Positions 1 through 18,960 of a stretch of DNA of 18,960 nucleotides are shown here, in pieces. The notes under the pieces were generated by a model. It saw only the letters and a program-made list of their open reading frames with translations. It ran no database searches and was not told the origin of the DNA. A program made the translations under genes and the position numbers. Position 1 is the first letter of the stretch. Each line of letters opens with the position of its first letter. Origin of the DNA: a virus (Duplodnaviria; Heunggongvirae; Uroviricota; Caudoviricetes); the IMG/VR virus record IMGVR_UViG_2585427767_000004; one strand, written 5' to 3'.

Positions 1-884
1 ATGGGTATGCTGGAAAGAGAGATGAAAAACCTGGCGCGGCAGGCTGGCGGGGCGCACAAGATTGTCCATGACCGTATCGCCACGGCAGGACGGTTCTGTG
101 GACGCCTGATGGAACTGAACGTTCAGATACGCTATGTCCACCATTTAAAGACGAAGCATATTGAGGCGTATATTCAGATGCGGCTGGCGCAGGGGATTCA
201 GAAACAGACGCTGCATAATGAAACGGCGGCCATCCGTAAAATACTGACGCAGGCCGGGCGCGAAAAGCTGGCGCAGAGTGAGCGGATATCGAATAAATCG
301 CTGGGGCTGGCTGGCGTATCCCGCAACGGTACGCGGAAAGCCATTACGCCGGAATATTATCAACAGATGGCAGAGACTGCCCGGCTGAAAGACGCGGGAC
401 TGGAGGCAGCGCTGGAGCTGGCACGGCTGATGGGGTTACGTTCACAGGAAGCAGTACGCTGTTCCGGTTCACTAAAAACCTGGCGCGAAGCACTGGCGCA
501 CGGCGACACCCGGCTGACCGTGGTACTCGGCACCAAAGGCGGACGGCCCCGCGGCACCCTTATTCAGGATACTGGCGCAGTTAAACGGGCGCTTGAGACT
601 GCCATTGCGGTGACAGAACGGCGTAACGGCAGGCTGATTGATACGGCGAGCCTTAAACAGGCAATAAAATACTGGCGCAACCACACTTTGCGTATGGGCT
701 GACGGACAAATACTCCCCGCACTCACTGCGCTACGCCTGGGCGCAGGACGATATCCGCCGGTATCTGGCGCAAGGATTCAGCGAAAAAGAGGCGCTGGCA
801 ATGGTGGCGATGGGCCTGGGGCATGGCGACGGGCACGGTCGCTGGGTGAAGCAGGTGTACGCACACGAATGGAAGAAGGAATAA
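1..884 (+). pseudogene. Tyrosine recombinase (phage-type integrase), reading frame disrupted
   Basis: ORF 1..702 (233 aa) has an integrase-like N-terminal/central region including an Arg-containing box-I-like segment (RLTVVLGTKGGRPRG). TGA at 700-702 ends it, but the catalytic box II continues in another frame at 699..884 (LTDKYSPHSLRYAWAQDD...GLGHGDGHGRWVKQVYAHEWKKE, with His-x-x-Arg and a C-terminal Tyr). Either a real frameshift or a sequencing indel near 690-705. The ORF reaches the window start, so the true 5' end may lie upstream. Confidence 0.6.
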
Positions 885-1462
885 CAGCTTTCATGGCTGG
901 CGCAAAATAATACATTATGCAGTAACGGCGGTAATTTCTCTGATGCAGCTGTCAGGGAAAATCAAACCGGATAGCGCCGTTACTGCGTAACGCCAGCAAT
1001 TTACCACTCCCTCTTTACTGGATATGGCGCAGAGAGCAATGGGTATTGATTATACAGATCCAGACTACAATAACGCTTCTGGTGCAGGCTCTCATGATAC
1101 CTATCTGAATAAGCTGACTCCGTCAGAAAGGGAAAGGGTTATAAAGGTTAAAGGTGGCTAAGGGTAACAGCCCTGGCCGGAAAAGGCCGAAAACCAAAGG
1201 GCCACAAACTGGCGCAGTCCTGGATAGTTATGGTAGTTGAATGCAGGTTTGGTTGATCACAATACAGCCTGGTGTGTACAGCTTGTTCATTAACTGACCA
1301 CACTGCACGTTCACAACACCCCATCCAAAGAACAAAATGAATGCTTCCGGACTAACATCCTCACAGGCCGCTATATCGTGCCAAACAAGTACGCCAGTAA
1401 GTACGCGAGAGGAAAAATGAGAAGATCTTTATGAGAGGAAAAATTGTAACTCTTTGATTTAA

Positions 1463-1508
1463 ATGGTGCCGATAATAGGAGTCGAACCTACGACCTTCGC
1501 ATTACGAA
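1463..1508 (-). other. 3' fragment (about 46 nt) of tRNA-Thr(CGU), thrW-like; att core duplicate, not a functional tRNA
   Basis: Minus-strand sequence reads ATTCGTAATGCGAAGGTCGTAGGTTCGACTCCTATTATCGGCACCA: anticodon loop with CGT, T-arm GGTTCGACTCC, acceptor 3' strand and CCA. The sequence upstream of the anticodon loop (higher coordinates) does not form the D-arm or 5' acceptor strand, so only the 3' part is present. The match to E. coli thrW is from memory, not from a search. Confidence 0.8.
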
Positions 1509-2494
1509 TTATAAGAATCCGCTTCTAATTCAAAGCATTACCCCATTAACACTGCGCTCACACGTCCCACCACATCAAAACATGTAAAGCCTTGCAAGCC
1601 ATTGTGAGGCCTTATGTGTCTCAGTTTTGTCCCATCTTGTATTACGACTCGCATAGCCAATGAAGATAAACGTGACAACAAACGGCGAAGCAGTCTTCTT
1701 TTCTTTCACGCCTTCCCTGCACGCAGCATGCATACCTTTCTACCACAACTGAAGTGAATGCCTGTTATGAGCAACAAGCGGAAGTTAAATGGTTAGACGT
1801 TAGCATCGACTTACACAGGTCTAACCCAATGCGGCAGCTCCCGACAGGCTGGATGTTGTCAATGCTGAAAAGGGCAAGGGACGGGCAACCGCATATCTCG
1901 GCCTGCAGCGGCCCCTCCTGAAAGACGAGTCTCAGCGCTGGCATCGGCAGAATGCGTGACGGAACACATGACATCGATACGGGCGATGTTGAACAGTGTG
2001 CGTTCCCGTTCGGCAGGGGGGAGCGTGGTATGAACAGACCTGTTTTAGCCAGCCCGTATACCGGTCCCGTTTTCAGCTGTGTGAGGCGCTGAATGCCGTC
2101 GACGGGGTAGTCACTCACTTTTCCTGCGAGGGGCATCCCCGCGCCGCTGCGCGGCCATATGTTGTTTTCTCTTCCAGTGAGTTAGTGGCTCGCCGGACAG
2201 ACTGCGCAATCAGAATGGCTCACCGTCAGGGGCGCCTGCGGTACGTGTGGTGAGTGACAGGGGATTTCAGTGTTGCTTCGGGCAATTTTTTGTACTGCAT
2301 TGAACCCAATGATATCCGGTTAACCGGAAAGCCATGGCTGGGGTTAATCCCCCGCTGGCGAAGAAGGATAATGGATCACCATGCAACCTCTTGAAAATAC
2401 TTCCTTGATTATCAGAGTGTTTTTCCTCAAAATGTTTTTCTTTCAAACATTTTGTAATACACACTGCAATACACAACTTCTAAATGGATAAAGT

Positions 2495-3865
2495 ATGACT
2501 CTGAATGAATTTTCATCAACCACAGCATCTATTTTTGGTAATTTTGAAAAAATCATAAGAATGCTAAAAAGCATAAGTGACCCTAAATACATAACCGTTG
2601 CCAACAGAAGAAGCAAACTTTTGGGAAATATGTCCGAACATATTTCCATAATCAATAAATTCCATCCTTTCGCACATGCTGAATTCTTTACAAAAGAAGA
2701 AAAAGAAAATATCTTTTCACTACTAAAACTTACGGACAACTACATATCATCTATGATTTCTGATATTTTTTCAGATGATATTTATCGGAACATTATCACT
2801 ATCAATGATGATTTAATTAGGTATTCAAGAATATCTAAGTTTATCCAAGGCACGCATAATCAACCTAATACCTTAGCCATGTTCAAAAATCAAGCATCTA
2901 ATGAAATAGCCAAAGTGGTAGATCTGAAAAATGAAATTGAAATAAGTGCAACTCAAATCAGAGAGTTAGCAGTAAGAAATGCAAATTCTCATGATAAAAT
3001 CATTAAACTTGTTACGGACTTGAACGCCGAGACGAAAAAATTTGAAAGCGCCGGTTCTGAAATAGAATTCATACTAAAAAAGAGCAGAGATGCACTTATT
3101 GGTATAGAATCATCTAGTGAAAAGCTAAGAACTGTTGAAGAAACATTAAACAATATCGTTAATACAAACAAATCAATGCAAGACGAAATCATTAAAAAAT
3201 CTGCTGAGTCTGCCAGTGAGATTAAAAATCTCCTTGATAAAAAAAATGAAATTAAAGAATTAAAAACCATTATATCTGGTGAAATAAATAATGCGAAAGA
3301 ATTGAACTCTAAAGCTAATTCCGCATTGAATTTATCTGGAACATATAGGCTATCAAGACATTTTAGAGATGCATACAAAACCGCAAATAAAAACAAAAGG
3401 TTTTGGGCCTTTGTATCAATAGGAGCTGCAATCGTATGTATAGCATTCGTGGTTTATATGCTTGTCAAGATGAATGAAGTTAGTTCTTATCCTCCTACAG
3501 GCCAAGAGCCCAACTTATTATTATTATTCTTTGCTCGATTCTCAATGATTCCAGTATTAATAGGCTTCTTTGTATTTAGCGCCATACAATATGTTAAACA
3601 AAACAACATCAGTGAAGATTATGCGCATAAAAAATTGCTATCTGAAACTCTTGTATCTTTCAAGCAGGAAATCAATAAGAACGATACCGATAAATCATCA
3701 TTATTCATGGATAACATTCTTAAATCAGTATTAAGATCACCGCTTAGCTCCATAGACAAGAAGTCGCATCAAATGGAAATTGATAAAATAAACGAATTGA
3801 TTAATACGACATCTAAAATTAATAAAGAAATTATAGACCGCGTTTTGCCTGAGAAAGAGAAATAA
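2495..3865 (+). CDS. Hypothetical protein, 456 aa: coiled-coil-rich N-terminal domain, two predicted transmembrane helices, short C-terminal tail; candidate membrane effector (defence / superinfection exclusion); family not recognised
   Basis: Long uninterrupted ORF in a visibly AT-rich block, with ATG at 2495 and a weak GGA Shine-Dalgarno about 6 nt upstream. Residues about 309-330 (FWAFVSIGAAIVCIAFVVYMLV) and about 348-370 (LLLLFFARFSMIPVLIGFFVFSAI) are strongly hydrophobic. The N-terminal 300 aa are K/E/I/N-rich with heptad-like periodicity. No catalytic motif recognised. Confidence 0.8.
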   Translation: MTLNEFSSTTASIFGNFEKIIRMLKSISDPKYITVANRRSKLLGNMSEHISIINKFHPFAHAEFFTKEEKENIFSLLKLTDNYISSMISDIFSDDIYRNIITINDDLIRYSRISKFIQGTHNQPNTLAMFKNQASNEIAKVVDLKNEIEISATQIRELAVRNANSHDKIIKLVTDLNAETKKFESAGSEIEFILKKSRDALIGIESSSEKLRTVEETLNNIVNTNKSMQDEIIKKSAESASEIKNLLDKKNEIKELKTIISGEINNAKELNSKANSALNLSGTYRLSRHFRDAYKTANKNKRFWAFVSIGAAIVCIAFVVYMLVKMNEVSSYPPTGQEPNLLLLFFARFSMIPVLIGFFVFSAIQYVKQNNISEDYAHKKLLSETLVSFKQEINKNDTDKSSLFMDNILKSVLRSPLSSIDKKSHQMEIDKINELINTTSKINKEIIDRVLPEKEK

Positions 3866-4644: not shown

Positions 4645-5349
4645 TTTCAACTCCCGCCAGCCCACCAATCATGATTGGACGGTGTAAGGACAACACCAAA
4701 AAAACATGAAGTTAGCAGTCTCAGCGGAACACCGACCAGACGGTAAGCAGACAAAAAAGGATAAGCAAAGGAGCCGCAGTTCCCTAATGACACGAAAGCC
4801 CGCATTCTGATTAATTTGCTGTGCTTCACCTATCTCCATCAATAAAAACCATTCTTTTATAGCTTGTATATGCCAACTTGGCATGAATGCTTGTGATGAG
4901 TGAGGTGTGAAAGTTAGACGCAACATCCCCCTAGCGCCCACTCATTGCTATCGACGCCTTATTTTCAACATCAATGCAAATAGAAGTATGAAGATCGATG
5001 ATAGTAAACATTAGGTTAAAAAAACACGTAGTACTCTCCTTGGAGTATGAAGACGTTACTCACTTTAAGATTAGCATCCTCAAACCACTGTGAATTTGCT
5101 CCCATACGGAAAGAGGTGACTCAGACCTACAAAAATTTGTCAGGCCCGAAGGGTATCTTGCGCCAGCATAAAATACTGGATATAACCTAACTATTCATTT
5201 TAGCAATAGCCATTGCTTACGAGAGCTAGCTAATCTACGTAAATGCTAGGCATAACAGTGTCTTTAAAAGATATAGGTGGAATAAGTTCTGAAGTATGAG
5301 TGCTCTTCTTTTTCATCTATTCGTAATCAAAATGTGGATGTGATTGTTA

Positions 5350-8300
5350 ATGACAAATAAAAAAAATTTGAGTAATCCTTTTTCTACAGGCGGAGGCGGT
5401 GTTCATTTTGAAGCACATGTCCAAGCGTCTTTTGTTGCTCTAATGCTAACAGGCGGTAATGCACCTTGTCTTCCTTGTTGGCCCATAGTGGAGATAAATC
5501 TCCAGGGCAAGATTGATGGTTTTGATACCGACGACTTGATCGTCGTTGTTAAAGATTTCAACAGCAATGAAAAACGGAAGCTATTAGGACAAATAAAGCA
5601 TTCTATTTCATTTACGCAAGGTAATGCGATACTTGGGGAAGTTATACAGGCTGCTTGGAACGATTTCAACAATCCTGACTTGTTTACCAAGAACAAGGAT
5701 GTTATTGCACTGATCACCGGTCCGCTCAGTTCGACCGATACACACAATGTGCTCTGGTTATTGAATCAGGCTAGACACACAAAAACAGTCGATGAATTTT
5801 TGAGGAACGTTCAAAAAGCCAAGTTCAGCCCGCCTAAAAGTACTGAGAAACTGGAGGCCATCCAGTTTCATCTGAAGATGGCAAACAGTGGGAACGATTT
5901 AACAAACGATGAGCTTTATGACTTTTTGAACCATTTCCATTTACTAGGGTACGATCTGGGTAATGAATCAGGCGTCGTCCTTTCTTTGCTGCACTCCCAC
6001 ATAGCGCAATTCCATCAACAGTATCCTCAGTGGGTTTGGTCGCGGATAGTTGATATCGTACAAACTTGGAATAAAGATGCTGGCACTATCATTTCAAGTA
6101 AGCTACCTGAAGATCTTTTAGATGTTTTCAAACAAAGGGTTATTGCTGAAATACCTGAGAAGTTGAGGTTAGTACAACCGGTAGTCAAAACCGACTGGAC
6201 TCACCACCCAGATGCCTCTTATTTAGCCTTAGCAGTGTTGATTGGGCAATGGAATGATAAAAATGAGTGTGACCGAAATGTACTAACCCAATTGCTTGGT
6301 ATCAGCTATGACGAATGGCTAAGGAAGGCTCGAGAGATTTTACATAGCCCAGACAGTCCTTTGTCCCTAAAAAACGGCATTTGGAAAGTAACAAATCGAA
6401 TGGAGCTATGGAGTCTTCTTGGATCCCGCATTTTTGATCAGAATCTTGAATTGTTTAAGTCTTCCGCGATTTCCGTACTCAAAGAGCCAGACCCTGCTTT
6501 CGAATTACCTGCTGAAGAGCGTTACGCTGCTAGTATTCATGGTAAGGTGCTGAAGTTTTCATCCACGCTGCGACAAGGTATAGCAGAGGGTTTAGCCATA
6601 ATCGGGAGTCGGCCAGAGGTTTGCGTTAACTGCTCTCAGGGGAATGCTGAAACTTCCGTTAACGTCGCAATACATACAATTTTGACTGATGCAAACTGGG
6701 TTTTATGGGGTAGCCTAAACGGTTTGCTACCAACTTTGGCTGAAGCAGCTCCTGCAAAATTTCTTGATGCAGTTGAGAAGGCAATGCGTCAGACTCCTTG
6801 TGCATTTGATGAGCTTTTTTCTCAAGAAGTAAATGGTATCACTGGTGGTAATTATCTGACAGGACTGCTATGGGCTCTAGAAGAATTAGCCTGGGATGAG
6901 CAATACCTAGTACGCGTCTGTGTTGTACTGGCCGAACTTGCCAGCCACGATCCTGGGGGCAAGTGGGCTAATCGACCATCTAACTCGCTTACTACTATAT
7001 TATTACCGTGGTTTCCGCAAACGCTGGCATCTATAGAAAAACGAAAAGTTGCAGTCAACGTCATCTTGCAGGAATGGCCTGACATTGCCTGGAATTTACT
7101 CGTCCAGCTTCTACCCGGTCACCATCAAACCTCTTCTGGGTCACACAAGCCCTCTTGGCGCCGAATAATCCCAGATGATTGGGAAAGCAAAGTGACTAAT
7201 CAGGATTACTGGTTGCAGACATCTTTTTATGCTGAGCTTGCCGTCAAAAACGCCGGAGAAGATATCGAACGCCTTACCTTGTTGATTGATAATTTTGATG
7301 GCCTTCCATCTCCTGCTTTCGAACATCTTCTTAAGCACCTCTCTTCGGAAACAATTAATTGTCTTAATGAAGAGCAGCGAGTTGTAATTTGGGATCATCT
7401 TCATCGATTCGCAAATAAACATCGGCGATTCTCTAATGCTAATTGGGCTTTACCTGATGATCTGCTGACCAAAATCGAAAATGTTGCCGAGCAACTGGCA
7501 CCTACCAATCCATTCAACTTATATCAGCACCTTTTTTCAAATCGAGATTTTGATCTTTACTTAGAAAATGGCGATTGGGAAGAACGGAGAAATAAACTCG
7601 AATCAAGGCGCGAATCCGCAATATCAGAAATTCTTAAGCAAGATGGCGCAGAAGGCGTTATTCGATTTGCAGATCACGTTTCTGCGCCCCATCAAATAGG
7701 AAGTGTACTCGGCACTATCAACGATGATGTGTTCGAAAAACTTCTTTTGCCCCGTTTCCTCAATACAAAAGAAAATAAGTATAAGGCATTGGTAAGCGCT
7801 TTTATTTGGAAGCGTTTCTATCTCAAAGGCTGGGAGTGGTTCGACAATCTGGATAAAGCTGACTGGACTCCTGAACAGTTAGGCCAATTCTTTGCTTATC
7901 TGCCTTTTAACAAGGAGACCTGGACCCGAGTCTCTCATTATCCTCAAGCTTCCGAGAACGAATATTGGGCTCGCACCGATGCAAATCCTGACCTGGGTGA
8001 AGGTGACCTTACTAGTGCCATCGATAAGCTGATTGATCATGGCAGACCTCTTGCGGCAATCAATTGCCTGTGCAGGATGCATCAGACAAAGCAGCCAATC
8101 GATACTGAACAGTGTATCCGCGCTTTGCTTGCTGCCACTTCAACTAACGAATCTAGCTCCAACATGGATGGTTACAACATAACTACCCTTATCCAATTTC
8201 TTCAGACTGATCCCAAAGTGAATCCGGATAATCTTTTTCAGATCGAGTGGGCTTACCTTCCATTGCTCGATGGTCACCAAGATGCTGTGCCTAAGTTCCT

Positions 8301-8892
8301 TGAGAATAAAATGGCTAATGATCCAGAATTTTTCTGCGAAGTAATCCAACTCATTTATCGTTCTGACAAAGAAGACAATATGACAAGTGAACCAACAGAG
8401 GAATTGAAAGCAATCGCAAAAAATGCCTGGACTCTTTTGTACAACTGGAAGACACCGCCAGGAAGCCAATCAAATGGGACGTTCAACGGAGAACGCTTTA
8501 CTGAATGGCTTCAGAAAGTTAAGGAGGGTTCTACGGCATCAGGTCACCTGGACGTTGCACTCAGCAAAGTTGGTGAAGTCTTGATTTATACTCCCTCCGA
8601 ACCGAATGGCTTGTGGATAAACCGAGAGGTCGCAGCTGCTCTCAACGATCGAGATGCTGAGAGTATGCGCAGGGGCTACATGACAGGAGCCTACAACTCA
8701 CGAGGTGTTTATTGTGTTGACCCAACTGGAAAACCTGAGAGAGAGCTAGCTGACCAGTTCCGGGCAAAAGCAGAAGAAGTGGAAAACGCTGGTTTTCAGC
8801 GATTCGCCGTTACCTTAAGAGATTTAGCGGTTGGCTATGACCACGAAGCTGCACAGGTTATCAGCAATCTAAATATTGGAGAGGATGATTAA
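5350..8892 (+). CDS. Large hypothetical protein (about 1180 aa), no P-loop; family not recognised; candidate stand-alone defence or toxin protein
   Basis: Uninterrupted 3.5-kb ORF. The track starts at TTG 5344, but ATG 5350 (MTNKKNLSNPF...) is the more likely start. Moderately AT-rich compared with the tail genes. No Walker A (GxxxxGK[ST]) found on reading the translation. Gly-rich N-terminus (FSTGGGGVHFEAH), CxxC pairs (CLPC, CVNC), Trp-rich helical remainder. Putative terminator just downstream. Confidence 0.85.
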   Translation: MTNKKNLSNPFSTGGGGVHFEAHVQASFVALMLTGGNAPCLPCWPIVEINLQGKIDGFDTDDLIVVVKDFNSNEKRKLLGQIKHSISFTQGNAILGEVIQAAWNDFNNPDLFTKNKDVIALITGPLSSTDTHNVLWLLNQARHTKTVDEFLRNVQKAKFSPPKSTEKLEAIQFHLKMANSGNDLTNDELYDFLNHFHLLGYDLGNESGVVLSLLHSHIAQFHQQYPQWVWSRIVDIVQTWNKDAGTIISSKLPEDLLDVFKQRVIAEIPEKLRLVQPVVKTDWTHHPDASYLALAVLIGQWNDKNECDRNVLTQLLGISYDEWLRKAREILHSPDSPLSLKNGIWKVTNRMELWSLLGSRIFDQNLELFKSSAISVLKEPDPAFELPAEERYAASIHGKVLKFSSTLRQGIAEGLAIIGSRPEVCVNCSQGNAETSVNVAIHTILTDANWVLWGSLNGLLPTLAEAAPAKFLDAVEKAMRQTPCAFDELFSQEVNGITGGNYLTGLLWALEELAWDEQYLVRVCVVLAELASHDPGGKWANRPSNSLTTILLPWFPQTLASIEKRKVAVNVILQEWPDIAWNLLVQLLPGHHQTSSGSHKPSWRRIIPDDWESKVTNQDYWLQTSFYAELAVKNAGEDIERLTLLIDNFDGLPSPAFEHLLKHLSSETINCLNEEQRVVIWDHLHRFANKHRRFSNANWALPDDLLTKIENVAEQLAPTNPFNLYQHLFSNRDFDLYLENGDWEERRNKLESRRESAISEILKQDGAEGVIRFADHVSAPHQIGSVLGTINDDVFEKLLLPRFLNTKENKYKALVSAFIWKRFYLKGWEWFDNLDKADWTPEQLGQFFAYLPFNKETWTRVSHYPQASENEYWARTDANPDLGEGDLTSAIDKLIDHGRPLAAINCLCRMHQTKQPIDTEQCIRALLAATSTNESSSNMDGYNITTLIQFLQTDPKVNPDNLFQIEWAYLPLLDGHQDAVPKFLENKMANDPEFFCEVIQLIYRSDKEDNMTSEPTEELKAIAKNAWTLLYNWKTPPGSQSNGTFNGERFTEWLQKVKEGSTASGHLDVALSKVGEVLIYTPSEPNGLWINREVAAALNDRDAESMRRGYMTGAYNSRGVYCVDPTGKPERELADQFRAKAEEVENAGFQRFAVTLRDLAVGYDHEAAQVISNLNIGEDD

Positions 8893-9245: not shown

Positions 9246-9533
9246 TTAACGGATCAACAGCCAGACCAGCAGACACGCCACCACCGGCACAGCAAAATCC
9301 ATCAGGCTTGCCACATCCCAAGCACGCGGATCAAAACCGCCCCACCACGGCATATTCATTCGCTTGCCATGCCCGAACATTTCAATCCAGCGATATTCTG
9401 CCTGGGTATGTTCACGAGCGATGAAGAACGTACAACCAGCTATCGCACCGTAAGCCCAGTTTCCGGTAAAAAGACCAACCAGTACCTGCGCAGCCACAGC
9501 ACAAAGTGCATGAAGTAAGGGGCTTATATCCAT
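9246..9533 (-). CDS. Small hydrophobic (membrane) protein, 95 aa, last gene of the tail-fibre operon; function unknown
   Basis: ORF with two to three hydrophobic segments (LLHALCAVAAQVLVGLF, AVPVVACLLVWLLI). Follows the tail-fibre genes on the same strand with a 13-nt gap. Confidence 0.65.
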   Translation of the reverse strand: MDISPLLHALCAVAAQVLVGLFTGNWAYGAIAGCTFFIAREHTQAEYRWIEMFGHGKRMNMPWWGGFDPRAWDVASLMDFAVPVVACLLVWLLIR

Positions 9534-9546
9534 TACTCCTCCTTTA

Positions 9547-10248
9547 TCAGATATCGTTTCGGGAAGTTGATAACAACTTTAATTCTGACTGAAGTTCATC
9601 AACTCTTTCTGTCAGTTTCTGGATATGGTGAATCAGTGGAACAACCAGACGTTCGTACATTACACCTTCGGCAACAAGGCCATTGCTGGAAATAGCTTCC
9701 GGTGCATCATCTTCGTTAGCTGGTCGCCAGTGTACAAACTGAGGGGCAATTTCTCCTACTTCCTCGGCAATCAATCCGTAGAATCCCCAGTCACGCCTGT
9801 CATTTTCGCATTGCGACCTGTACCACACAGGGCGCATCTTGAAAATGAGATCGGCGTGCTCTGAATCTATCGTCTCTACTGAATGTTTATAGCGAATAGA
9901 CGATGTTGACCGCAGTACAGACGAAATTGCGGGGTCAGGATTAAGATAAAGGTTTGCCGCCGCTGTAGTCGTGGCCAAATTCCATAAATAAAACGCTTCT
10001 CGACCTGTCAGCGGGTAAAAATCACCGCCATAACGACCGCTTTCCAGATCGTTCGCTTCCACTTTGTTTTTCAGCTTATTATCAACTTCAGTTTTTGTGT
10101 ATCTGGTGCTGATATCCTGCTTTGCACTGGTCATATCAGTCTGAAGCGTTGATACTTTTCCGTTAATTGAGGAAATATCTTCCTTAGCTTTACTGACATC
10201 TCCCTTTAGCGTGGTAATGTCTCCCGGAATTACTGTCGATGTAGCCAT
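9547..10248 (-). CDS. Tail fibre domain protein with C-terminal intramolecular chaperone (peptidase S74-like) domain
   Basis: N-terminal coiled-coil-like segment (GDITTLKGDVSKAKEDISSINGKVSTLQTDMTSAKQDIS) and C-terminal WGFYGLIAEEVGEIAPQFV...YERLVVPLIHHIQKLTERVDELQSEL, which matches the pattern I recall for endosialidase-chaperone-type C-terminal domains of phage fibres. Confidence 0.7.
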   Translation of the reverse strand: MATSTVIPGDITTLKGDVSKAKEDISSINGKVSTLQTDMTSAKQDISTRYTKTEVDNKLKNKVEANDLESGRYGGDFYPLTGREAFYLWNLATTTAAANLYLNPDPAISSVLRSTSSIRYKHSVETIDSEHADLIFKMRPVWYRSQCENDRRDWGFYGLIAEEVGEIAPQFVHWRPANEDDAPEAISSNGLVAEGVMYERLVVPLIHHIQKLTERVDELQSELKLLSTSRNDI

Positions 10249-10257
10249 TTTTCTTCC

Positions 10258-10539
10258 TCACATCCAGCCACGAAGTTGATGCTCAACAGCAACCACGTAT
10301 TCATCGAATATTGACAGTGTTTTCACATCATTAATGATGCGCACGTTTACAAAATATCCGTCTTCCTTAACACATACCGGTTCGCCATCTTCATTCAGTT
10401 CTCCGGTTTCTTTGTACACGTTACCTATCACGTCAATAAGAATATCATCCTGCATCGACTCGTCATCATAATAGCCAGTGCTATCCATAAAGGCCGAAAA
10501 GTCGGCCTTGTCTGCAAATTTAAGGGTTAAGTCTCTCAT
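10258..10539 (-). CDS. Hypothetical phage protein (93 aa), translationally coupled to stf
   Basis: Start codon overlaps the stf stop (ATGA overlap at 10536-10539). Acidic protein. Sits where lambda carries tfa but is shorter, and I do not recognise it as Tfa. Confidence 0.65.
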   Translation of the reverse strand: MRDLTLKFADKADFSAFMDSTGYYDDESMQDDILIDVIGNVYKETGELNEDGEPVCVKEDGYFVNVRIINDVKTLSIFDEYVVAVEHQLRGWM

Positions 10540-12596
10540 GATATTTTTTCTCCCATTTGTGTCTCGGTCAATTCTTTATGCCAGTTCCTAAAATTTCGAA
10601 TATGACCGAATAAGTGACGTTCACCCGTTGAAGTTTGCCCACCAAAACGAATGCTTGTATTCTTAGTTACATATCTCCACGCGGTTTTTTTAGGAACACT
10701 AGGAGGAATATCACCATTCAAAACAATATGAACACCATAATCTTTAGTAATTCTAAATCCAGCAACGAACTTTCTCTCTTTCGTTACCAGGTAACTATTA
10801 ACGCGTCCAGCATCTGCACCAACATCAATATAAGGGCTACCAGTATTTGCGGCAGTACCGCCACGGCAACCAAAAATAACGGCCTGGCCCGTTGGCACAC
10901 CGGAAAAATCCATTATACGTGGTGCTGCATTAGGAGGAAGTTCCCATTCCCAATTTCGATGAACTTCGGCTAAAATTGTAATAGGTGCGTCATACATATT
11001 ATTCTTAACAGGAATGTTAACCAAATCACTAGCGCGGGTAGCTGGTACGTCGTTAGTTATGATTAATGATGTTGCATGAGAACATTTCTCTACCTGAGCG
11101 GTTGCCGCCTTTATGTAATTTCCTGCGACCAATTCGCCGCCACTTTTAGCAAGCATTTCAGTACGAGCATAAACGCTCATATCTTCGGTAGCTTTAAATG
11201 TCGATTGGAAAAAATACCATCCACTAGCAGGATCATAATCAACGCGACTAGACAAAACATCACTAACTAGTTTAGCGGTATCAAGATCCAACATAGCATC
11301 AGCAATAAATGTGTTTCCGTTCCCGTCATCATTTAATTTTGAAATACGATGGCGAGCGCGACAACCAGCCCCCTTAACACGAATAGATATAGTAACATAT
11401 TCACCACCAACAACTGGAATCACACGGGATGTCCCAGTAGAAATCAACGTAACTGGCCCAGTGTCGGATGATTCTTTATAAGTGAATGTTGCTTGAGTAA
11501 AACCAAATTCATCAATAGAGTTTTCACTAACAGATAGACGGTTTGTATTTCTGTTCCAGTTCGCTGGTGAGTTACTATTAATAAAGTTATTAGTCGTAGT
11601 ACCTTCAATCAACAAACCATTTTTTTCGAAGCGTGGTTCGTCAATTGCAGCCTCCGTCAGTACACCAGATTTGTTAATGTAGGTTGCTTTCGATGCGCGT
11701 TTAAACTTTACAACCTTATCGCCAGGCATTGTTATTTCATCATCACCAATAACAATCTTTTTATATGATGGCGAAAAGCCCGTAATCATATCCAGTGAAT
11801 CGTTAAACGGTATCCACACATCGGGAAGCGGCTGCAAAACTTGTTTATACGGCTCCGCAGCCTGGCTTGCATACTCTCTGGCTGCGTCTTCACTTGCTTT
11901 AGCTGCTGTCTGGCTTGCTGCCGATGCTTTCGCCGAGTTCGCCGCCGCTGTTTCGCTCGCCTTTGCGTTGTTTTCACTGGTTTTTGCTGCTTTTTGGCTG
12001 TTGGCTGATGCAGTGGCAGAAATAGCCGCCTCGCTTGCAGATCCGGCTGCGGCACTCTCGCTTTCAGCTGCTGCATCCTGACTGTTTTTCGCCGCAGTTT
12101 CGCTGGCTTTAGCGTTCGTTTCGCTGGTCTTCGCTACCGTCTGGCTGGACTTTGCGTTAGTTTCGCTCGTCTTCGCTGCTTTCTGGCTGTTAGCAGCTGC
12201 AGTTTCGGATTTCTTTGCCGCCGCTGCGCTCTGAGAGGCGGCTTCAGCGTTGCGTGCTGCTTCTTCCACCATTGCCTCAAAACGACGCAATGCCTCCGGC
12301 ATGACATCATCTTCCGTCATGGCACCGAGAAAATCATTCAGCGTACCAGGTCTGGAACCTTCATAGACGGTAATGGTTCCGGCATGTGAAGGCGGAAAAC
12401 CTTCAACCAGCAGGGTGACGCTGTACTGGCCATGCTCAACATCCATGCTGTAACTCCCGGCTTCATCCGGATTTTCAGAGGCCACCGTGTTCACCAGTAC
12501 CGTGGTGCTGTTACGCTTTGCTTTGAGCTGAATAGTGCAGTTCTGTATTGGTTTTCCTGCACCGTCTTTCAGCACGCCTGAAATCTGTACTGCCAT
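10536..12596 (-). CDS. stf: Side tail fibre protein (lambda Stf-like) with Ala/Ser/Thr-rich repeat shaft and a distinct C-terminal domain
   Basis: N-terminus MAVQISGVLKDGAGKPIQNCTIQLKAKRNSTTVLVNTVASENPDEAGSYSMDVEHGQYSVTLLVEGFPPSHAGTITVYE closely resembles the lambda Stf N-terminus as I recall it. Start placed at ATG 12596 with GGAG 5 nt upstream; the track start at 12602 is an in-frame GTG. Confidence 0.9.
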   Translation of the reverse strand: MAVQISGVLKDGAGKPIQNCTIQLKAKRNSTTVLVNTVASENPDEAGSYSMDVEHGQYSVTLLVEGFPPSHAGTITVYEGSRPGTLNDFLGAMTEDDVMPEALRRFEAMVEEAARNAEAASQSAAAAKKSETAAANSQKAAKTSETNAKSSQTVAKTSETNAKASETAAKNSQDAAAESESAAAGSASEAAISATASANSQKAAKTSENNAKASETAAANSAKASAASQTAAKASEDAAREYASQAAEPYKQVLQPLPDVWIPFNDSLDMITGFSPSYKKIVIGDDEITMPGDKVVKFKRASKATYINKSGVLTEAAIDEPRFEKNGLLIEGTTTNNFINSNSPANWNRNTNRLSVSENSIDEFGFTQATFTYKESSDTGPVTLISTGTSRVIPVVGGEYVTISIRVKGAGCRARHRISKLNDDGNGNTFIADAMLDLDTAKLVSDVLSSRVDYDPASGWYFFQSTFKATEDMSVYARTEMLAKSGGELVAGNYIKAATAQVEKCSHATSLIITNDVPATRASDLVNIPVKNNMYDAPITILAEVHRNWEWELPPNAAPRIMDFSGVPTGQAVIFGCRGGTAANTGSPYIDVGADAGRVNSYLVTKERKFVAGFRITKDYGVHIVLNGDIPPSVPKKTAWRYVTKNTSIRFGGQTSTGERHLFGHIRNFRNWHKELTETQMGEKIS
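11855..12270 (-). repeat. Tandem short repeats inside stf encoding an (A)KTSETNAKAS-like Ala/Ser/Thr-rich shaft
   Basis: Protein residues about 112-250 consist of reiterated AAKTSETNAK / SQKAAKTSE / ASETAAKNS units; the DNA shows corresponding reiterated GCTTTAGC/GTTTCGCT/GTCTTCGC blocks. Confidence 0.55.
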
Positions 12597-12610
12597 ATTC
12601 ACTCCACAAA

Positions 12611-12635
12611 TAAAAAAGGCGCCATTTCTGGCGCC
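12611..12635 (-). terminator. Rho-independent terminator between J and stf
   Basis: On the minus strand: GGCGCC-AGAAAT-GGCGCC followed by TTTTTTA, beginning 21 nt after the J stop and ending just upstream of the stf ribosome-binding site. Confidence 0.65.
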
Positions 12636-12656
12636 CGTATTGGGGTTATAAATATT

Positions 12657-15600
12657 TCAACGGATACTGATACCGGAAGCAGCTTTTTTGGTCACAATCA
12701 CTGTACAGTCTGTGATGTTACCTGCGCCCTGATTGCCTTTCTGGAAAACCTTAAACTCCAGAGTGACGCTTCCCCTGCCACTCGGCATATCAATAACCGC
12801 ACTGTAGCTACCGGGAATGGCCCCTTTAGTTTCTCTGGATGCGATTAATACACCGTTTTTGCGAACTTCAAAACCATAACCCGTGTATCTTGTACCTCCC
12901 GGGTTATTACCACTTCCCGGATCGCTATACGCTATTCCGTTAAAGATAATGGGCGGAATAATGATTTGACGGTCAAAGTTATGATCATCGCTGATGGTGA
13001 CTGTAACCGTCCCGTTTGGTGTTTCCGTATTACCCCACGTACCAGCCTGTTTCGGGAATGATTTGGATACAGCTTTAACGAAGTCACCTCTGACCTGAGT
13101 CGCCTCCAGCATGCCCTTAATCGTACAGTTTTCATTTACCGTGACATTGTTGAACGTCCCGGCGTTCGCATTCACACTGCCACTGATATCCGCATTTTTA
13201 GCGGTCAGCTTTCCGTCTGATGTCAGGGAAAATGCCGGTGGATTTCCACCACTGGTAATGGTCGGGGCCGTCAGGCGCTTCAGGAACACGTCGTTCATAA
13301 ATATCTGATTGCCCTGCGCCACAAACATCGGCGTTTCATTCCCGTTTGCCGGGTCAATAAACGCGATACGGTTAGCGGCAACCAGAAACTGGCTCAGCTT
13401 GCCTTCTTCCGTGTCCTCCATGCTGAGGCCAATACCCGCGACATAATGTTTGCCGTCTTTGGTCTGCTCAATTTTGACGCCCCACATGGCATTCCACTTA
13501 TCGTTAGCGTCCTGCCACTCTTTCGAAAACTCCTCCAGTTTGCTGGCGTTATCCTCCGTCAGCTCGACTTTTTCCAGCAGCTCCTTGCCGAGATGGGATT
13601 CGGTTATCTGGCCTTTGAAAAAATCCAGGTAACCTTCCGCATCATCGCTCGCCTGACCGACAGCCTCCACGAATGCCGATTTGCCAACGGTGTTCACACT
13701 GCGGATATAAAAGTAATAATCATGGCCCGGTTTGATATTGATACTGGCGGCTATCCAGTACATCCCCGTGCCAAGATAGCGGGCTGTGGTTTCAACCTGC
13801 CTGATATCCGCAATCCGTTTTTCCGAGAACCAGAACTCAAACTGTACCGTCGGGTCATAAACCGCAAGATGCGGCGTGGCGGTTATCTGAAAATAGCCCG
13901 GTGTCAGCTCAATCCGAGACGGCGCTGCCGGTGCGGCAATCCGGAACGATACCGATGCCGGATCGCCCTGCTGTCCCCACGCATTTACCGCCCGGACTGT
14001 CAGCCTGTAGTTCCCCAGCGCCAGTTGCGTGAAGCGGTATGTGGTTTCCGCCGTCCGGGCCGTGCTGACCAGCCGCTCACTGCCGTCATCCGCTGCCACG
14101 GTCAGGCGAAGCATGAAACTCACGCCCTTCACCACCTTCGGCGTGTCCCAGCGGGCCAGCACCTGGTATTCCCCACTGTCTGCGGTGACTTCGGCAGTCA
14201 GGTGCTGCACCGCTGGCGGCGTGACACCATTCACCGTGCCGCTCTGGTCGCCGTCAAAGTGCGCCCCGTTATCCACGATGGCTTCTTTTTCCGGTACATG
14301 CTGCACGGCGGTGATGGCATACGTGCCGTCGTCGTTCTCACGGATACTCACGCAGCGGAACAGGCGCTGGCGCAGCGTCGGCAGCTTCAGCCCCCACACG
14401 CTGTATTCAGCAACGCCGTCAGGAACACGGCTCACTTTCACCTTCACGCCGTCGGTGACGGACTGAACCTCCACGCTGACCGGATTGCCACTTCCGTCAA
14501 CCAGGCTTATCAGCGTGGTACCGGAGGATGGCAGCGTGATTTCACGGTCGAGCGTCAGCGTCCGGGTCTGGCTGTTTACCGCCAGCACGCGCCCGCCGGT
14601 GCTGATACCGGCATAGTCATCATCACAGATTTCAATGACATCGCCCGGCACATGGCGAAGCCCTTCGGCACCCACGCTGAAGTCCACCGTCTGCGTTTCC
14701 AGCAGCTCCGTTTTAATCAGCCACAGCCCGGCGCGGTGTGCCTGCCCCCGGCTGGTACAGCCAAAGGCATCCATCTTCGTGACGTTACGACCGTAACGGG
14801 CAATGGCCTGCGAGTCCTCCACAAGCTCTGTTGCCGTCTCCCAGCCGTTATCCGGGTCAATCCAGTTCACCTCAACGGCATTATGGCGGTCTTTCAGGGC
14901 GCTGAAGCTGTAGCGGAACGGCGCGCCATCATCCGGCATCACCACATTACTGCGGTTATAGGTCCACACCTTATCCGACGGTCGGTCCTGCACGAACGTC
15001 AGCGTCTGCCCGTTCCATACCGGCATACAGCGCATCGCCGAGCAGAAATCACTGAGCACATCCCACGCCTTGCGCTGTGTGGTCAGGTATGCATTACAGG
15101 TGATGCGCGGCTCCGTGCCGCCAAAGCCGTCCGGTACTGACTGGTCGCAGTACTGGCCGATGACATACAGCGCCCATTTGTCCACATCCGCCGCACCAAG
15201 ACGTTTCCCCATGCCGTAGCGTGGATGGGTCAGCATATCCCACAGACACCAGGCCATGTTGTTGCTGTATGCCGGTTTAAACGTTCCGTCCCAGATACCG
15301 CTGTATTGCCGCGTCTGCGGGTTATAGTTCGACGGCACCTGCAGAATGCGCCCGCGAAGATGATAATTACGGCTCACCTGCTGGCTGCCGAACTGCTCCG
15401 AATCCACCTGTACGCCGACCAGTGCCGTGTTCGGGTAGCACTGTTTCACATCGATGATTTCGGTGTATGACGACCAGAGCGTTTTGTTCTGCAGCTGGTC
15501 TGTGGTGCTGTCCGGTGTCATCCTGCGCATCCGGATATTGAACGGGCGCGGCGGCAGGTTATCCACCACCACCGAGGCCAGATACTGCGAGGTGGTTTTG

Positions 15601-16070
15601 CCCTTAATGGTGATGTCTTTTTCCGTCACCCAGCCACCGTTACGCTGTATCTGAACCAGCAGGCGGACTTCCGACGGATTCCTGTCTCCCTTTGAGGTGG
15701 TTTCCACCAGTGCCTGTACACCGAAGGTAAAGCGCAGACGGTCGATGTTTGCCGACGTGATGGTCCGGGTGATCGGCGTGTCATATTTCACTTCCGTACC
15801 CAGCACCGTCTCGGAGCCGGAGGATTCAAATCCCTCCGGCGGTGACTGCTCCTGCTCACCGGCCCGGAACACCACCGTGACGCCGGAGATGTTGGTATTC
15901 CCCTCAGTGTCCAGCACCGGCGTACTGTTCAGCAGCACACTTTTTAATCCCTCCACCGGACCTTCAACCGGCCCTTCGCTGATGGCATCGATCACACTCA
16001 GCAACTGCGTGGACTTCAGGTTGTCCTTCGCTTCGCGCGGGGTATGCCCCTTACTGCTGCCTTTACCCAT
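12657..16070 (-). CDS. J: Host specificity protein J (central tail fibre / tip attachment protein)
   Basis: 1137-aa protein beginning [34 protein letters not shown], colinear with lambda J as I recall it over most of its length. The C-terminal roughly 130 aa (from about [20 protein letters not shown]) appear different. GGAG ribosome-binding site upstream. Confidence 0.95.
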
Positions 16071-16130
16071 TCCTCACGCTCCATAAACGACAAAACCGCC
16101 CGCAGGCGGTTTCACATAAAACATTTTGCA

Positions 16131-16778
16131 TCAGCGACCAATCACCACAACCTGACCACCGTCCCCTTCGTCTGCCGTGCTGATCTCCTGAGAAACCACG
16201 CGTGACCCCACGCGCATTTCCCCGTACAGAACAGGCAGAACATTGCCCTGGGCAACCATGTTATCCAGTGAGGAGAAATACGTGTTCTGTTTGCCGTTAT
16301 CCGTTGTCTGTGTGCGGGGAGTTCTGGCTTTCGGTGCCAGCATCTGCGCCACACCGCCCAGGATCATACTGGCCCCTGCCGCATACATGCCCGATACAGC
16401 CGCGGCACCCAGCCAGCCCACAGGGTTCCACCATGCCACCGCAATCAGCGCAGCCCCCAGCACTGCCTGAAAAACACCGCCACTTTTGGCACCCGCCAGA
16501 CGCGGTACGATGTGGATCACGGCACCATTTGCCAGCGGCTCATTAAGACGGGCAGATAATTCGTTTTCGCCTGCATCACGCCCGGCAATGCGCACCTGAT
16601 ACCAGCCCTCATTCAGTTTCTGACGAAACGCCGGGAGCTGCGTGGCCAGCGCCCGGATAGCTTCGGCTCCCGTTTTCACACGAAGGTCGATGCGGTGGCC
16701 AAATCGTTGCAAATCCCCGTAAAGGCAGATGCGTGCCATGCCCGGTGACGCCAGAGGGAGTGTGTGCGTCGCTGCCAT
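16131..16778 (-). CDS. I: Tail assembly protein I
   Basis: MAATHTLPLASPGMARICLYGDLQRFG... with C-terminal ...KQNTYFSSLDNMVAQGNVLPVLYGEMRVGSRVVSQEISTADEGDGGQVVVIGR, matching lambda gpI as recalled; position between K and J. Confidence 0.9.
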   Translation of the reverse strand: MAATHTLPLASPGMARICLYGDLQRFGHRIDLRVKTGAEAIRALATQLPAFRQKLNEGWYQVRIAGRDAGENELSARLNEPLANGAVIHIVPRLAGAKSGGVFQAVLGAALIAVAWWNPVGWLGAAAVSGMYAAGASMILGGVAQMLAPKARTPRTQTTDNGKQNTYFSSLDNMVAQGNVLPVLYGEMRVGSRVVSQEISTADEGDGGQVVVIGR

Positions 16779-17419
16779 TTGTCGGTATACCTCTCTCGTT
16801 TGCTCAGTTGTTCAGGAATATGGTGCAGCAGCTCGCCGTCGCCGCAGTAAATGGCGGCATGATTCGGCACCGATGAACCAAAGCAGCACAGCAGCACATC
16901 GCCCGGCTGCGCCTCTGTCAGTGCGGCACGGTAAAAACCAGTCGCCTCCATATTGTCAAGATAGAGATTCTGGCCGTTACGCCACCAGTCATCCCCGCGA
17001 TGAAAATCCGGCATCTCAATTCCCGCCAGATGGTAAGCGTCCCGGAACAGCGTGTAACAGTCCGTCACCCCGTGCTCAAAGCGCCGCCCGGTGAGATGCG
17101 GCACACAGCGGAACTTATGAATCGCCCCGCGGCAGACCAGCCACCACGGCAAATCACTCTGCACCTGCAGCCGCCGGTCGGCCTCACTCAGCCAGGGCAG
17201 ACCACCGGGGTGGCTGTGGACCAGCGCCACAATCTCACCCTGCATCTCTGCCTGCAGCCAGCCCTCCGGAGCCATCCGGAAATACTCCTCCGGCTCACCG
17301 GAAATATTCACGCAGGGAAAATATCTTTCCCCCTCCGGCGTTCTCACCACGAAGCCGCACGACTCCGCTGGCGCACATCGCCGGGCGTGCGCCAGAATCG
17401 CTGATTCTGTCTCTGTCAT
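16676..17419 (-). CDS. K: Tail assembly protein K (JAB/MPN metalloprotease-like plus NlpC/P60-like domains)
   Basis: MTETESAILAHARRCAPAESCGF...; JAMM-type motif HSHPGGLPWLSEAD (HxH-x7-S-x2-D) is visible. ORF overlaps the start of I by about 100 nt in a different frame. Confidence 0.9.
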   Translation of the reverse strand: MTETESAILAHARRCAPAESCGFVVRTPEGERYFPCVNISGEPEEYFRMAPEGWLQAEMQGEIVALVHSHPGGLPWLSEADRRLQVQSDLPWWLVCRGAIHKFRCVPHLTGRRFEHGVTDCYTLFRDAYHLAGIEMPDFHRGDDWWRNGQNLYLDNMEATGFYRAALTEAQPGDVLLCCFGSSVPNHAAIYCGDGELLHHIPEQLSKRERYTDKWQRRTHSLWRHRAWHASAFTGICNDLATASTFV

Positions 17420-17424
17420 GGGAT

Positions 17425-17968
17425 TTACTGCGAAAGTTTGTTAATGGAAAGGAAGCCGCCAAAGTTGCCGACGTTATTGCGGAACTTACAGCCGCTCAGG
17501 CATTTGCTGCATTTATCCTTCGTGATATCGGATGTTGGCTGGTCATATTCATCCGCGACAGCCGGACCGCTATAACCGCACTCATCACCGCGATAGGTCC
17601 AGGTGCAGGTGTTGGCCAGCATGATACGTCCCGGAAAAACAGCGCCATCCGTTTCCGTCGGTGTGGACAACACAAAGGAGGCACTTACCGCGCTCAGTTC
17701 GCTGCACTGCTCAATGCGCCAGCGGCTGATCACCTCCTGCTCTGGATCGGCGTCGCTGTTTCCGTTGACGAAGTTCACCGCATCCAGAAAACGGGCATAA
17801 ACCTTACGCCTGACCACCGTTCCGCCGACCAGACTCTGCAGGTCTTCCGCCATCCCGGTGACCATACCGTACAGGTTAGAAACCGTCAGCATGGGGCGCG
17901 TACTGGTGCCTTTGCCATTCAGTTCGAAACCACTCCCCTGAATGGGATACGCCTGATACTGTCGCCCC
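17425..17968 (-). pseudogene. L: Minor tail protein L, 5'-truncated by IS insertion
   Basis: From ...GRQYQAYPIQGSGFELNGKGTSTRP to the C-terminal ...GNFGGFLSINKLSQ resembles lambda gpL. The first codons of the track ORF (MSNIWGAVQ, 17969..17994) are encoded by the IS left end, and the expected N-terminal roughly 50 residues of L are absent from this side. Confidence 0.8.
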
Positions 17969-18010
17969 TGAACTGCACCCCAAATGTTGGACATAATCTG
18001 ACATCTGAAG

Positions 18011-18541
18011 GTGCAGTTTATGAAACATTCATTTGAAGTAAAACTTGCCGCTGTAAATCATTACCTGGCTGGTCATGCAGGCATCATTTCTACGGCAAAA
18101 CTCTTTCAACTTTCTCACACCAGCCTCTCACACTGGATTAATCTTTTTCTTCTTCACGGTCCTCGGGCACTGGATTGCAGACACAAGCGTAGCTATTCTC
18201 CTGAAGATAAACTTTGCGTGGTTCTTTATGCTCTCGGGCATTCTGAGTCTCTACCCCGGGTAGCTGCCCGGTTTAACATTCCCAGCCACAACACGGTTAA
18301 AAACTGGATAAAAGGCTACCGCAAATCTGGTAATGAGGCCTTTATCAGGCGCAGGAAGGAGAAAAGCATGACCCGTTCTGATGATACCCATGAAAACGAG
18401 GCAAACATGACGCCGGAAGAGATGAAGAATGAGCTGCGTTATCTTCGCGCAGAAAATGCATATCTGAAAGCCATGCAGGAGCATCTCCTGGAAAAAAAGC
18501 GCCAGGAGCTGGAGAAAAAACGAAAGTCATCCGGAGCCTGA
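18011..18541 (+). CDS. IS3-family transposase OrfA (HTH DNA-binding component)
   Basis: 176-aa ORF with helix-turn-helix-like N-terminus and a leucine-zipper-like C-terminus (ELRYLRAENAYLKAMQEHLLEKK). The true start may be ATG 18020 (MKHSFEVKLAAVNHY). Confidence 0.85.
   Translation: MQFMKHSFEVKLAAVNHYLAGHAGIISTAKLFQLSHTSLSHWINLFLLHGPRALDCRHKRSYSPEDKLCVVLYALGHSESLPRVAARFNIPSHNTVKNWIKGYRKSGNEAFIRRRKEKSMTRSDDTHENEANMTPEEMKNELRYLRAENAYLKAMQEHLLEKKRQELEKKRKSSGA
18493..18499 (+). promoter_or_regulatory. Programmed -1 ribosomal frameshift site (A AAA AAG) for OrfAB fusion
   Basis: Heptamer A-AAA-AAG in the orfA zero frame at 18493-18499, with orfB open in the -1 frame from here on. Confidence 0.6.
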
Positions 18542-18960
18542 GGTGCGGACACTGCCAGTCTGACCTGTTAAAGGCTGCAGGGCTGGCCAGAAGCACGCTG
18601 TACTACCAGCTGTCACTGCAGAAGGCTAAGGACAAGTATGCTGATGTGAAACAGCTCATAGCCTCCATCTTCCATGAACACCGGGGATGTTATGGGTACC
18701 GGCGGATCCATTGTGAGCTTCAGAAAAGAGGTCTTAAGTTCAGTGGCAAAACAGTGCGAAAACTGATGCAACAGCTCGGCCTGAAGTCTCCTGTGCGCCT
18801 GAAGAAATACCGGTCTTACCGGGGAAATATGGGACTCGCTGCAGAAAATATCCTTCAGCGACAGTTCAAAGCGGAAGCTCCCTGTGAGAAATGGGTGACA
18901 GATATCACCGAATTCAGGGCTGGCGGACAAAAACTGTACCTGTCCCCGATACTTGATTTG
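18493..18960 (+). CDS. IS3-family transposase OrfB (DDE integrase-like domain), reached by -1 frameshift; 3' end outside window
   Basis: In the -1 frame after the slippery site the translation reads ...LLKAAGLARSTLYYQ...HRGCYGYRRIHCELQKRGLKFSGKTVRKLMQQLGL...KWVTDITEF..., typical of the N-terminal part of IS3-family OrfB. No stop before the window end. Confidence 0.8.

Follow-up and report, generated by a model that had tools for sequence, protein, structure and literature searches.

Probable whole-module exchange in the two host-recognition fibres of a lambda-type Escherichia coli prophage

In phage lambda, a trimer of the receptor-binding domain (RBD) belonging to the central tail fibre protein J docks on an outer-membrane protein and triggers opening of the tail (PMC11101478). 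The protein recognized varies among relatives: lambda uses LamB, Gifsy-1 uses OmpC, OmpX and BtuB, phages 434 and phi330 both use OmpC although their J alleles are merely 35-40% identical (PMC12502783), and the J protein of phage 21 natively uses LamB and can reach OmpC via a single mutation (PMC11336670). Residues 960-1132 of J were described as an independently recombining 'specificity region', with insertion-deletion (indel) hot spots at lambda J positions 1012, 1048-49, 1077-78 and 1107, in a data set that includes phages cdtI and Ayreon (Maddamsetti et al. 2018, PMC6646904). The side fibre of Ur-lambda, Stf, begins with an N-terminal domain that forms a dodecameric collar holding four trimeric fibres; next comes a coiled coil at residues 102-393 (PMC12617516). 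It ends in a gp37-like needle/RBD with Tfa as chaperone, and lambda Stf binds OmpC (Ur-lambda Stf with Tfa, PMC12617516). For the lateral fibres of Drexlerviridae, first contact with a glycan has been proposed but 'never directly demonstrated'; T5 has been shown to make such contact, as has Gifsy-1 through Stf and the core of lipopolysaccharide (LPS). Here we analyze J and stf in an 18,960-nucleotide stretch of DNA, the window, from IMG/VR virus record IMGVR_UViG_2585427767_000004, which is a stretch of E. coli chromosome whose minus strand holds a lambda-type prophage's right arm. Both host-recognition devices of this prophage are probably mosaics produced by the exchange of whole modules. 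Feature coordinates are collected in Table 1.

Inspection of J reveals a strongly conserved body joined to a divergent end. The NCBIfam model lambda_TipJ covers residues 1-1137 with 2290 bits (cutoff 1950), and six of six Pfam J domains (FNIII-A, Phage-tail_3, Ig_J, Ig_J_second, Phage_Tail_Tip and Ig_GpJ_C) score above their gathering thresholds, so that length class and domain order are common to the window protein and to lambda J (PDB 8IYK, 8XCJ). In a global alignment with lambda J (1132 residues), identity is 97.3% over lambda residues 1-959, 73% over residues 960-989 and 40.1% over residues 990-1132. The same boundary is seen in DNA. Nucleotides 1-2970 of J form an unbroken blastn match to lambda 15505-18474 at 95.3%, and window 17552-13101 joins lambda 14000-18474 in a single segment at 93%; the last 429 nucleotides of lambda J have no blastn match in the window, and DNA similarity ends at codon ~990. 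The initial annotation had described J as lambda-like for most of its length with a different end of roughly 130 residues. The likeness and the difference both hold, and the divergent end is longer than was stated, at ~147 residues.

By its profile and structure matches, the divergent end is no foreign domain but a diverged, homologous lambda-type RBD with an immunoglobulin (Ig)-like fold. Its score on Pfam Ig_GpJ_C is 90.9 bits (cutoff 26.2), and phmmer links it to lambda J structures at E=3e-35, with E~1e-35 for the solved RBD entries 8xcj and 8iyk; the closest solved structure is 9wca ('A8 gpJ 713', E=4e-44). The phi330/9wca-type RBD is likewise a homologous Ig-like domain, but is 47% identical to the window protein in the last 150 residues and has different loop lengths. 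Relative to lambda, the indels of the window J lie at positions 1011/1012, 1043/1044, 1078/1079, 1099/1100 and 1109-1114, and these coincide with the published hot spots (PMC6646904).

Far closer copies of this module occur on other J proteins. Over the last 143-150 residues, identity is 100% to phage cdtI (AB285204), 98.6% to many long-tailed O157 phages that carry the Shiga toxin (Stx) types Stx1a/Stx2c and to phi458, Evi and 2B8, and 96% to WGPS6. Against cdtI, nucleotides 2851-3300 of J are 98-100% identical and the last ~115 nucleotides 94%, in contrast to the J body, where identity is 54-85% over nucleotides ~2400-2850 with an indel near nucleotides 2500-2580. WGPS6 J is 75% identical overall. 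Across the carriers of the cdtI-type RBD (cdtI, the Stx1a/Stx2c O157 phages, WGPS6, Ayreon, phi458 and Perceval), the module is 96-100% identical, whereas these phages differ in their J bodies and side fibres and have lom in the space between J and stf. The same RBD module thus sits on differing J bodies, and the crossover lies near codons 950-990, where the central straight fibre meets the RBD.

This allele is also the common one. By megablast, the window RBD module is present in 2,112 of 5,426 complete E. coli genomes (39%), compared with 98 of the 5,426 for the lambda RBD (L001 4476-4904), whose carriers among the matches listed are the laboratory strains K-12, B and C43(DE3). The window allele of J is thus the dominant natural allele in E. 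coli, and the LamB-binding tip of lambda is rare. The J half of the locus is a phenomenon already described in 2018, in an allele already sequenced. The initial annotation had taken the J and Stf modules together to suggest a different receptor specificity; that the modules differ from lambda is borne out, whereas the unusualness this implied is not, the J allele being the commonest and its modularity published (PMC6646904).

As J does in lambda on LamB, and in 434 and phi330 on OmpC, the window allele would dock on an outer-membrane protein and trigger opening of the tail. From the sequence relationships, breakpoints and allele frequencies computed here, we infer that its receptor is likely one other than LamB. 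The alternative that survives best is that recognition by J is unchanged, the allele still using LamB or being merely a drifted lambda-type RBD. Fold and family are those of the lambda RBD, but just 40% identity is left and the indels fall exactly at positions linked to receptor switching in lambda (PMC6646904). Alleles 35-40% identical can share a receptor, as 434 and phi330 do on OmpC (PMC12502783), and the LamB-using J of phage 21 lies one mutation from OmpC (PMC11336670); the window module, however, retains no nucleotide similarity to that of lambda, and its frequency in natural E. coli is ~20 times that of the lambda module, a difference that suggests a distinct ecological niche. On balance, an unchanged receptor appears unlikely.

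Two further comparisons were set aside. Phage phi330 (PV189401) resembles WGPS6 genome-wide, but its assignment to OmpC is not transferable, as its RBD is a separate allele, 47-53% identical. The J tip of Gifsy-1 barely aligns (15% identity over 94 columns).

Two side observations concern the gene itself. A 564-codon open frame runs antisense within a GC-rich part of J (13446-15140, plus strand) and is most likely a compositional artefact. Between J and stf lies a spacer of ~60 nucleotides (window 12597-12656) without lom, whereas a Lom/Ail-family gene occupies this place in lambda, cdtI, WGPS6 and phi330, and also in L002, the closest prophage in a complete genome.

Stf begins as a lambda protein and ends as a different one. 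The correct start codon is the ATG at 12596, which yields MAVQISG... as it does in lambda, and not the GTG at 12602. The N-terminal domain scores 222 bits on PF08400 (cutoff 26.6) and matches the lambda Stf N-domain (PDB 9e7m) at E=2.6e-47; residues 1 to ~117 are lambda-like, with 84% nucleotide identity to lambda at 12613-12247. An N-terminal collar domain and a repeat-rich shaft follow one another as in Ur-lambda Stf, and by analogy with residues 102-393 of that protein (PMC12617516) the shaft would be a coiled coil, about half as long as its counterpart. The distal ~430 residues, from residue ~250, are unrelated to lambda Stf: BLASTP of this part against lambda orf314, the gp37-like part, gives a best E of 2.5, which amounts to no similarity, and BLASTP of Stf against lambda Tfa gives no match. 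A lambda-like N-terminus followed by a different distal domain had been proposed in the initial annotation and is confirmed on both counts; as with J, alignment finds the C-terminal domains not near-identical to those of lambda. The proposed (A)KTSETNAKAS-type repeat shaft stands at the protein level, with three copies of AKTSE(T/N)NAK(A/S)S, but its DNA is only weakly repetitive (64-85%). The DNA holds 2.1 copies of a 42-nucleotide unit at 81-85% match (12088-12189), and dispersed copies are 64-76% identical at spacings in multiples of 21 nucleotides.

The distal module is instead part of a large family, of which 2,465 members are hit at E<=1e-5. Identity is 50-60% to the lateral fibres of T1-like Drexlerviridae (SLUR29, PeterMerian) and of Dhillonvirus-like, Queuovirinae-like and T5-like phages, with 59% identity to the PeterMerian fibre and 53% to a common 685-residue E. 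coli prophage Stf. Similarity along the protein changes partner. Residues 1-330 are ~90-100% identical to a 727-residue E. coli allele, save one 30-residue bin with a shaft indel; a metagenomic protein shares 70-93% identity with residues 271-540; and residues ~571-660 are only 9-43% identical to every one of the four homologs compared. Stf is a mosaic. The neck, which opens with PLPDVWIPFNDSLDMITGFSPSYKK, is the sole distal part with nucleotide matches of 84-88% in complete E. coli genomes, none of which holds a near-identical Stf distal region, whereas at least 51 assembly blocks, most of them drafts, contain the exact Stf protein.

Beyond the neck lie two domains, D1 and D2. The structure model gives D1 the jelly-roll beta-sandwich fold of the concanavalin-A-like lectin/glucanase superfamily. 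For D2, an exhaustive HMMER scan of residues 531-686 against 1.84 billion representatives returned 45 relatives, the best at 50% identity, and in the full-length hits the match sits at the C-terminus. A word-index search with D2 alone returned fragments only and missed the parent protein, and was not used to judge uniqueness. Pfam Laminin_G_3 matches D2 of two homologs (P0020 and P0122) at about its gathering score. As judged from these alignments, the tip at residues ~550-660 is a new and rare allele within a lectin-like family that is already known.

Where lambda has tfa, the distal module brings accessory genes of its own, as orf93 and orf233 are syntenic with genes of PeterMerian. The lateral-fibre module of Drexlerviridae (PeterMerian Bas05, SLUR29), Dhillonvirus and T5-like phages has the same order of fibre, ~92-residue protein and ~231-residue Peptidase_S74 'chaperone', and differs from the window in that the N-terminal attachment here is the lambdoid PF08400 and the tip is a distinct rare allele. 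Compared with Ur-lambda, the window has lectin-fold domains, orf93 and orf233 instead of needle and Tfa. The orf93 product is 50% identical to the syntenic 'hypothetical protein' of PeterMerian and 85% identical to a common E. coli prophage version; the orf233 product is 58% identical to the PeterMerian 'putative lateral tail fiber chaperone', and its residues 116-172 score 27.5 bits on PF13884 (cutoff 22). Searches of Pfam and NCBIfam with the open reading frames (ORFs) downstream found no match to a tail-fibre-assembly family; lambda Tfa itself was run by BLASTP against Stf alone. The orf233 product is 96% identical to the version in L002 that adjoins a very different Stf tip, and it therefore does not co-vary with the tip. 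It is free-standing, whereas a Peptidase_S74 domain is normally found at the C-terminus of a fibre, from which it is cleaved off.

Taken with the published collar structure, these parts suggest how the fibre would work. The lambda-type N-domain would mount a trimeric fibre on the tail-tip collar, with the heptad-repeat shaft as a spacer, and the distal module would reversibly bind a surface glycan, be it the O-antigen or some other motif of LPS or polysaccharide, instead of OmpC. A target other than that of lambda Stf is likely because a lectin-like beta-sandwich replaces the gp37-like needle, and from the concanavalin-A-like fold computed for D1 we infer binding to a glycan. With its lectin-like model fold and its hypervariable tip, the distal module most likely gives a reversible first contact with a surface glycan. 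The distal region could instead be an enzyme, a glycanase, lyase or esterase acting on O-antigen or capsule, and not a passive lectin-type binder; we regard this as improbable.

Table 1 Features of the J and stf region of the window, with coordinates in window positions (aa, amino acids; nt, nucleotides).
Feature	Coordinates	Strand	Remarks
Gene J, central tail fibre / tip attachment protein	12657..16070	-	1137 aa, intact
Lambda-like J body, aa 1-~990	13101..16070	-	Hub domains, fibronectin type III (FNIII) domains, alpha-helical shaft, central straight fibre
Alternative receptor-binding ('specificity') module of J, aa ~991-1137, Ig-like	12657..13100	-	DNA without a match in lambda
Gene stf, side (lateral) tail fibre	10536..12596	-	Single intact ORF of 686 aa
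Stf N-terminal domain, aa 1-131, collar attachment on tail tip	12204..12596	-	PF08400
Heptad-repeat shaft, aa ~102-255, rich in Ala/Ser/Thr/Lys/Glu	11832..12293	-	Degenerate 42-nt/21-nt periodic repeats
Junction of 315-nt in-frame length polymorphism (686 vs 791 aa)	12196..12210	-	Two blastn segments overlap here
Conserved neck, aa 256-340	11577..11831	-	Nearly invariant across the family (alignment A1)
Distal domain D1, aa ~346-496, concanavalin-A-like lectin beta-sandwich (model)	11109..11561	-	
Distal domain D2, aa ~544-686, hypervariable tip	10539..10967	-	Conserved end motif GGQTSTGERHLFGHIRNFRNWHK
orf93, small conserved lateral-fibre-module protein	10258..10539	-	phrog_1361, E=1e-44
orf233, N-terminal coiled coil and Peptidase_S74 intramolecular-chaperone domain	9547..10248	-	In place of lambda tfa
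Tail gene L, truncated	17425..17994	-	189-aa ORF without the first ~50 codons; Pfam Phage_tail_L positions 24-206 only
IS3-family element	17971-18960		IS3-type transposase OrfA at 18011-18541

The shaft varies in length. In 81 lambdoid homologs, with shaft length taken from LNDF to the distal-start motif (regular expression P[LV]P[DN]VW), 69 shafts measure 170 residues, that of the window included, nine measure 212 and one measures 149. These three classes share the same junction motif and differ by 21 and 42 residues, that is, by multiples of 7; the remaining two, of 162 and 142 residues, have a different shaft end. The 90% cluster of the window Stf holds members of both 686 and 791 residues. 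One of the latter, P0179 from a cryptic-clade Escherichia, is 98.3% identical to the window Stf overall and 99.5% identical over residues 257-686, and its extra length is one in-frame block of 105 residues of like repeats, placed after residue 131 in the protein and at codon 133 in the DNA. Alignment with L015 contains a single 315-nucleotide gap after stf nucleotide 399, whose ends lie in an imperfect direct repeat of 12-15 nucleotides, AACTGC(A/T)GCGGC. The computed length polymorphism agrees with the initial annotation, which had named the shaft as a likely site of length variation by slipped recombination, and the alignments support shaft length changing through the in-frame gain and loss of repeat blocks, apparently mediated by the repeats. 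The idea of the shaft as a hot contingency locus was weakened by the DNA repeat identity of 64-76% and by the 69 of 81 homologs at 170 residues; since repeat identity is low and one length class dominates, a high-frequency length switch is disfavoured. Repeats of the AACTGCNGCGGC type in PF08400 proteins are candidate sites for recurrent length-change junctions.

Several observations weigh against this account of the two fibres. The literature searched gives no receptor for the cdtI-type J allele, and divergence alone is no proof of a new one, because 434 and phi330 share OmpC. D2 of the window has no Pfam match at E<=1. The AlphaFold2 monomer of Stf has a mean predicted local distance difference test score (pLDDT) of 65; 10-residue means within D2 range from 38 to 84, low to moderate, with parts below 50, and the neck (residues 247-340) is poorly modelled as a monomer. 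The neck and the poorly modelled parts of D2 are probably ordered only in the trimer. Finally, with an insertion sequence (IS) in tail gene L, Stf and J may never enter virions in the genome of the window. A stronger form of the account, in which the J allele uses an outer-membrane protein other than LamB or OmpC and the Stf tip confers a new glycan specificity in an S74-chaperone-dependent, lectin-type lateral-fibre system, is put forward only tentatively, as a possibility that we would not favour. Exchange of whole modules, by contrast, amounts to ordinary lambdoid mosaicism, in which the J module is known and common.

On the minus strand, a truncated L is followed by K, I, J, stf, orf93, orf233 and orf95, and a contig of assembly GCA_000714265.1 is 100% identical to the window. 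The same prophage occurs in other E. coli assemblies (L003-L005) at 99.6-99.97% identity, where the tail set U, V, G, T, H, M, L, K, I and J is complete, the tape-measure protein H has 848 or 853 residues and the intact L has 232. Identity to these prophages stops at window 17970, where an IS3-family element breaks L near codon 51. The prophage is thus tail-defective in the strain of the window, and the insertion is recent and strain-specific, because near-identical prophages keep an intact L and the full tail set. That these genes are decaying relics of a defective prophage, devoid of current host-recognition function, is very unlikely: the element does break an essential tail gene at ~17970, but J and stf are intact, as are orf93, orf233 and orf95, and the prophages at 99.6-99.97% identity carry an intact L and the full lambda-type tail gene set.

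The remainder of the window holds genes outside the two fibres. Directly after the fibre module, orf95 (9246-9533) encodes a small, very hydrophobic protein assigned to phrog_1443, a label without function; its product could be a putative membrane-located exclusion or moron gene product. Beyond orf95 lie two large cargo ORFs and then an integrase-domain gene. The cargo ORFs, both on the plus strand, encode 1182 residues (5344-8892, ~43% GC) and 456 residues (2495-3865, ~30-32% GC), and both accompany the prophage in every locus examined. Neither has a match in Pfam or NCBIfam; PADLOC returned nothing for the 1182-residue ORF and only weak, non-significant DruC/ZorA for the 456-residue one. Window 1-1509 comprises a 233-residue integrase-domain ORF (PF12834/PF12835) and flank. 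This segment recurs at 99.9% identity beside the threonine transfer RNA (tRNA-Thr) gene in strains whose match stops by window 1509, and matches to the cargo region in other genomes begin at 1446-1463. The overlap of ~64 nucleotides (1446-1509) may be a prophage/chromosome junction and is a candidate for it. ARAGORN found no tRNA in the window.

The exchange of whole modules in both fibres would mean that lambdoid prophages keep the tail machine and re-target their hosts through replacement of the ~150 residues at the end of J and of the distal two-thirds of Stf. With the Stf allele, a large lectin-like lateral-fibre family that is common to temperate and virulent coliphages gains a further variant. 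Because most E. coli prophages carry the J allele of the window, identifying its receptor would inform host-range prediction for the long-tailed phages that convert their hosts to production of Stx or of cytolethal distending toxin (CDT).

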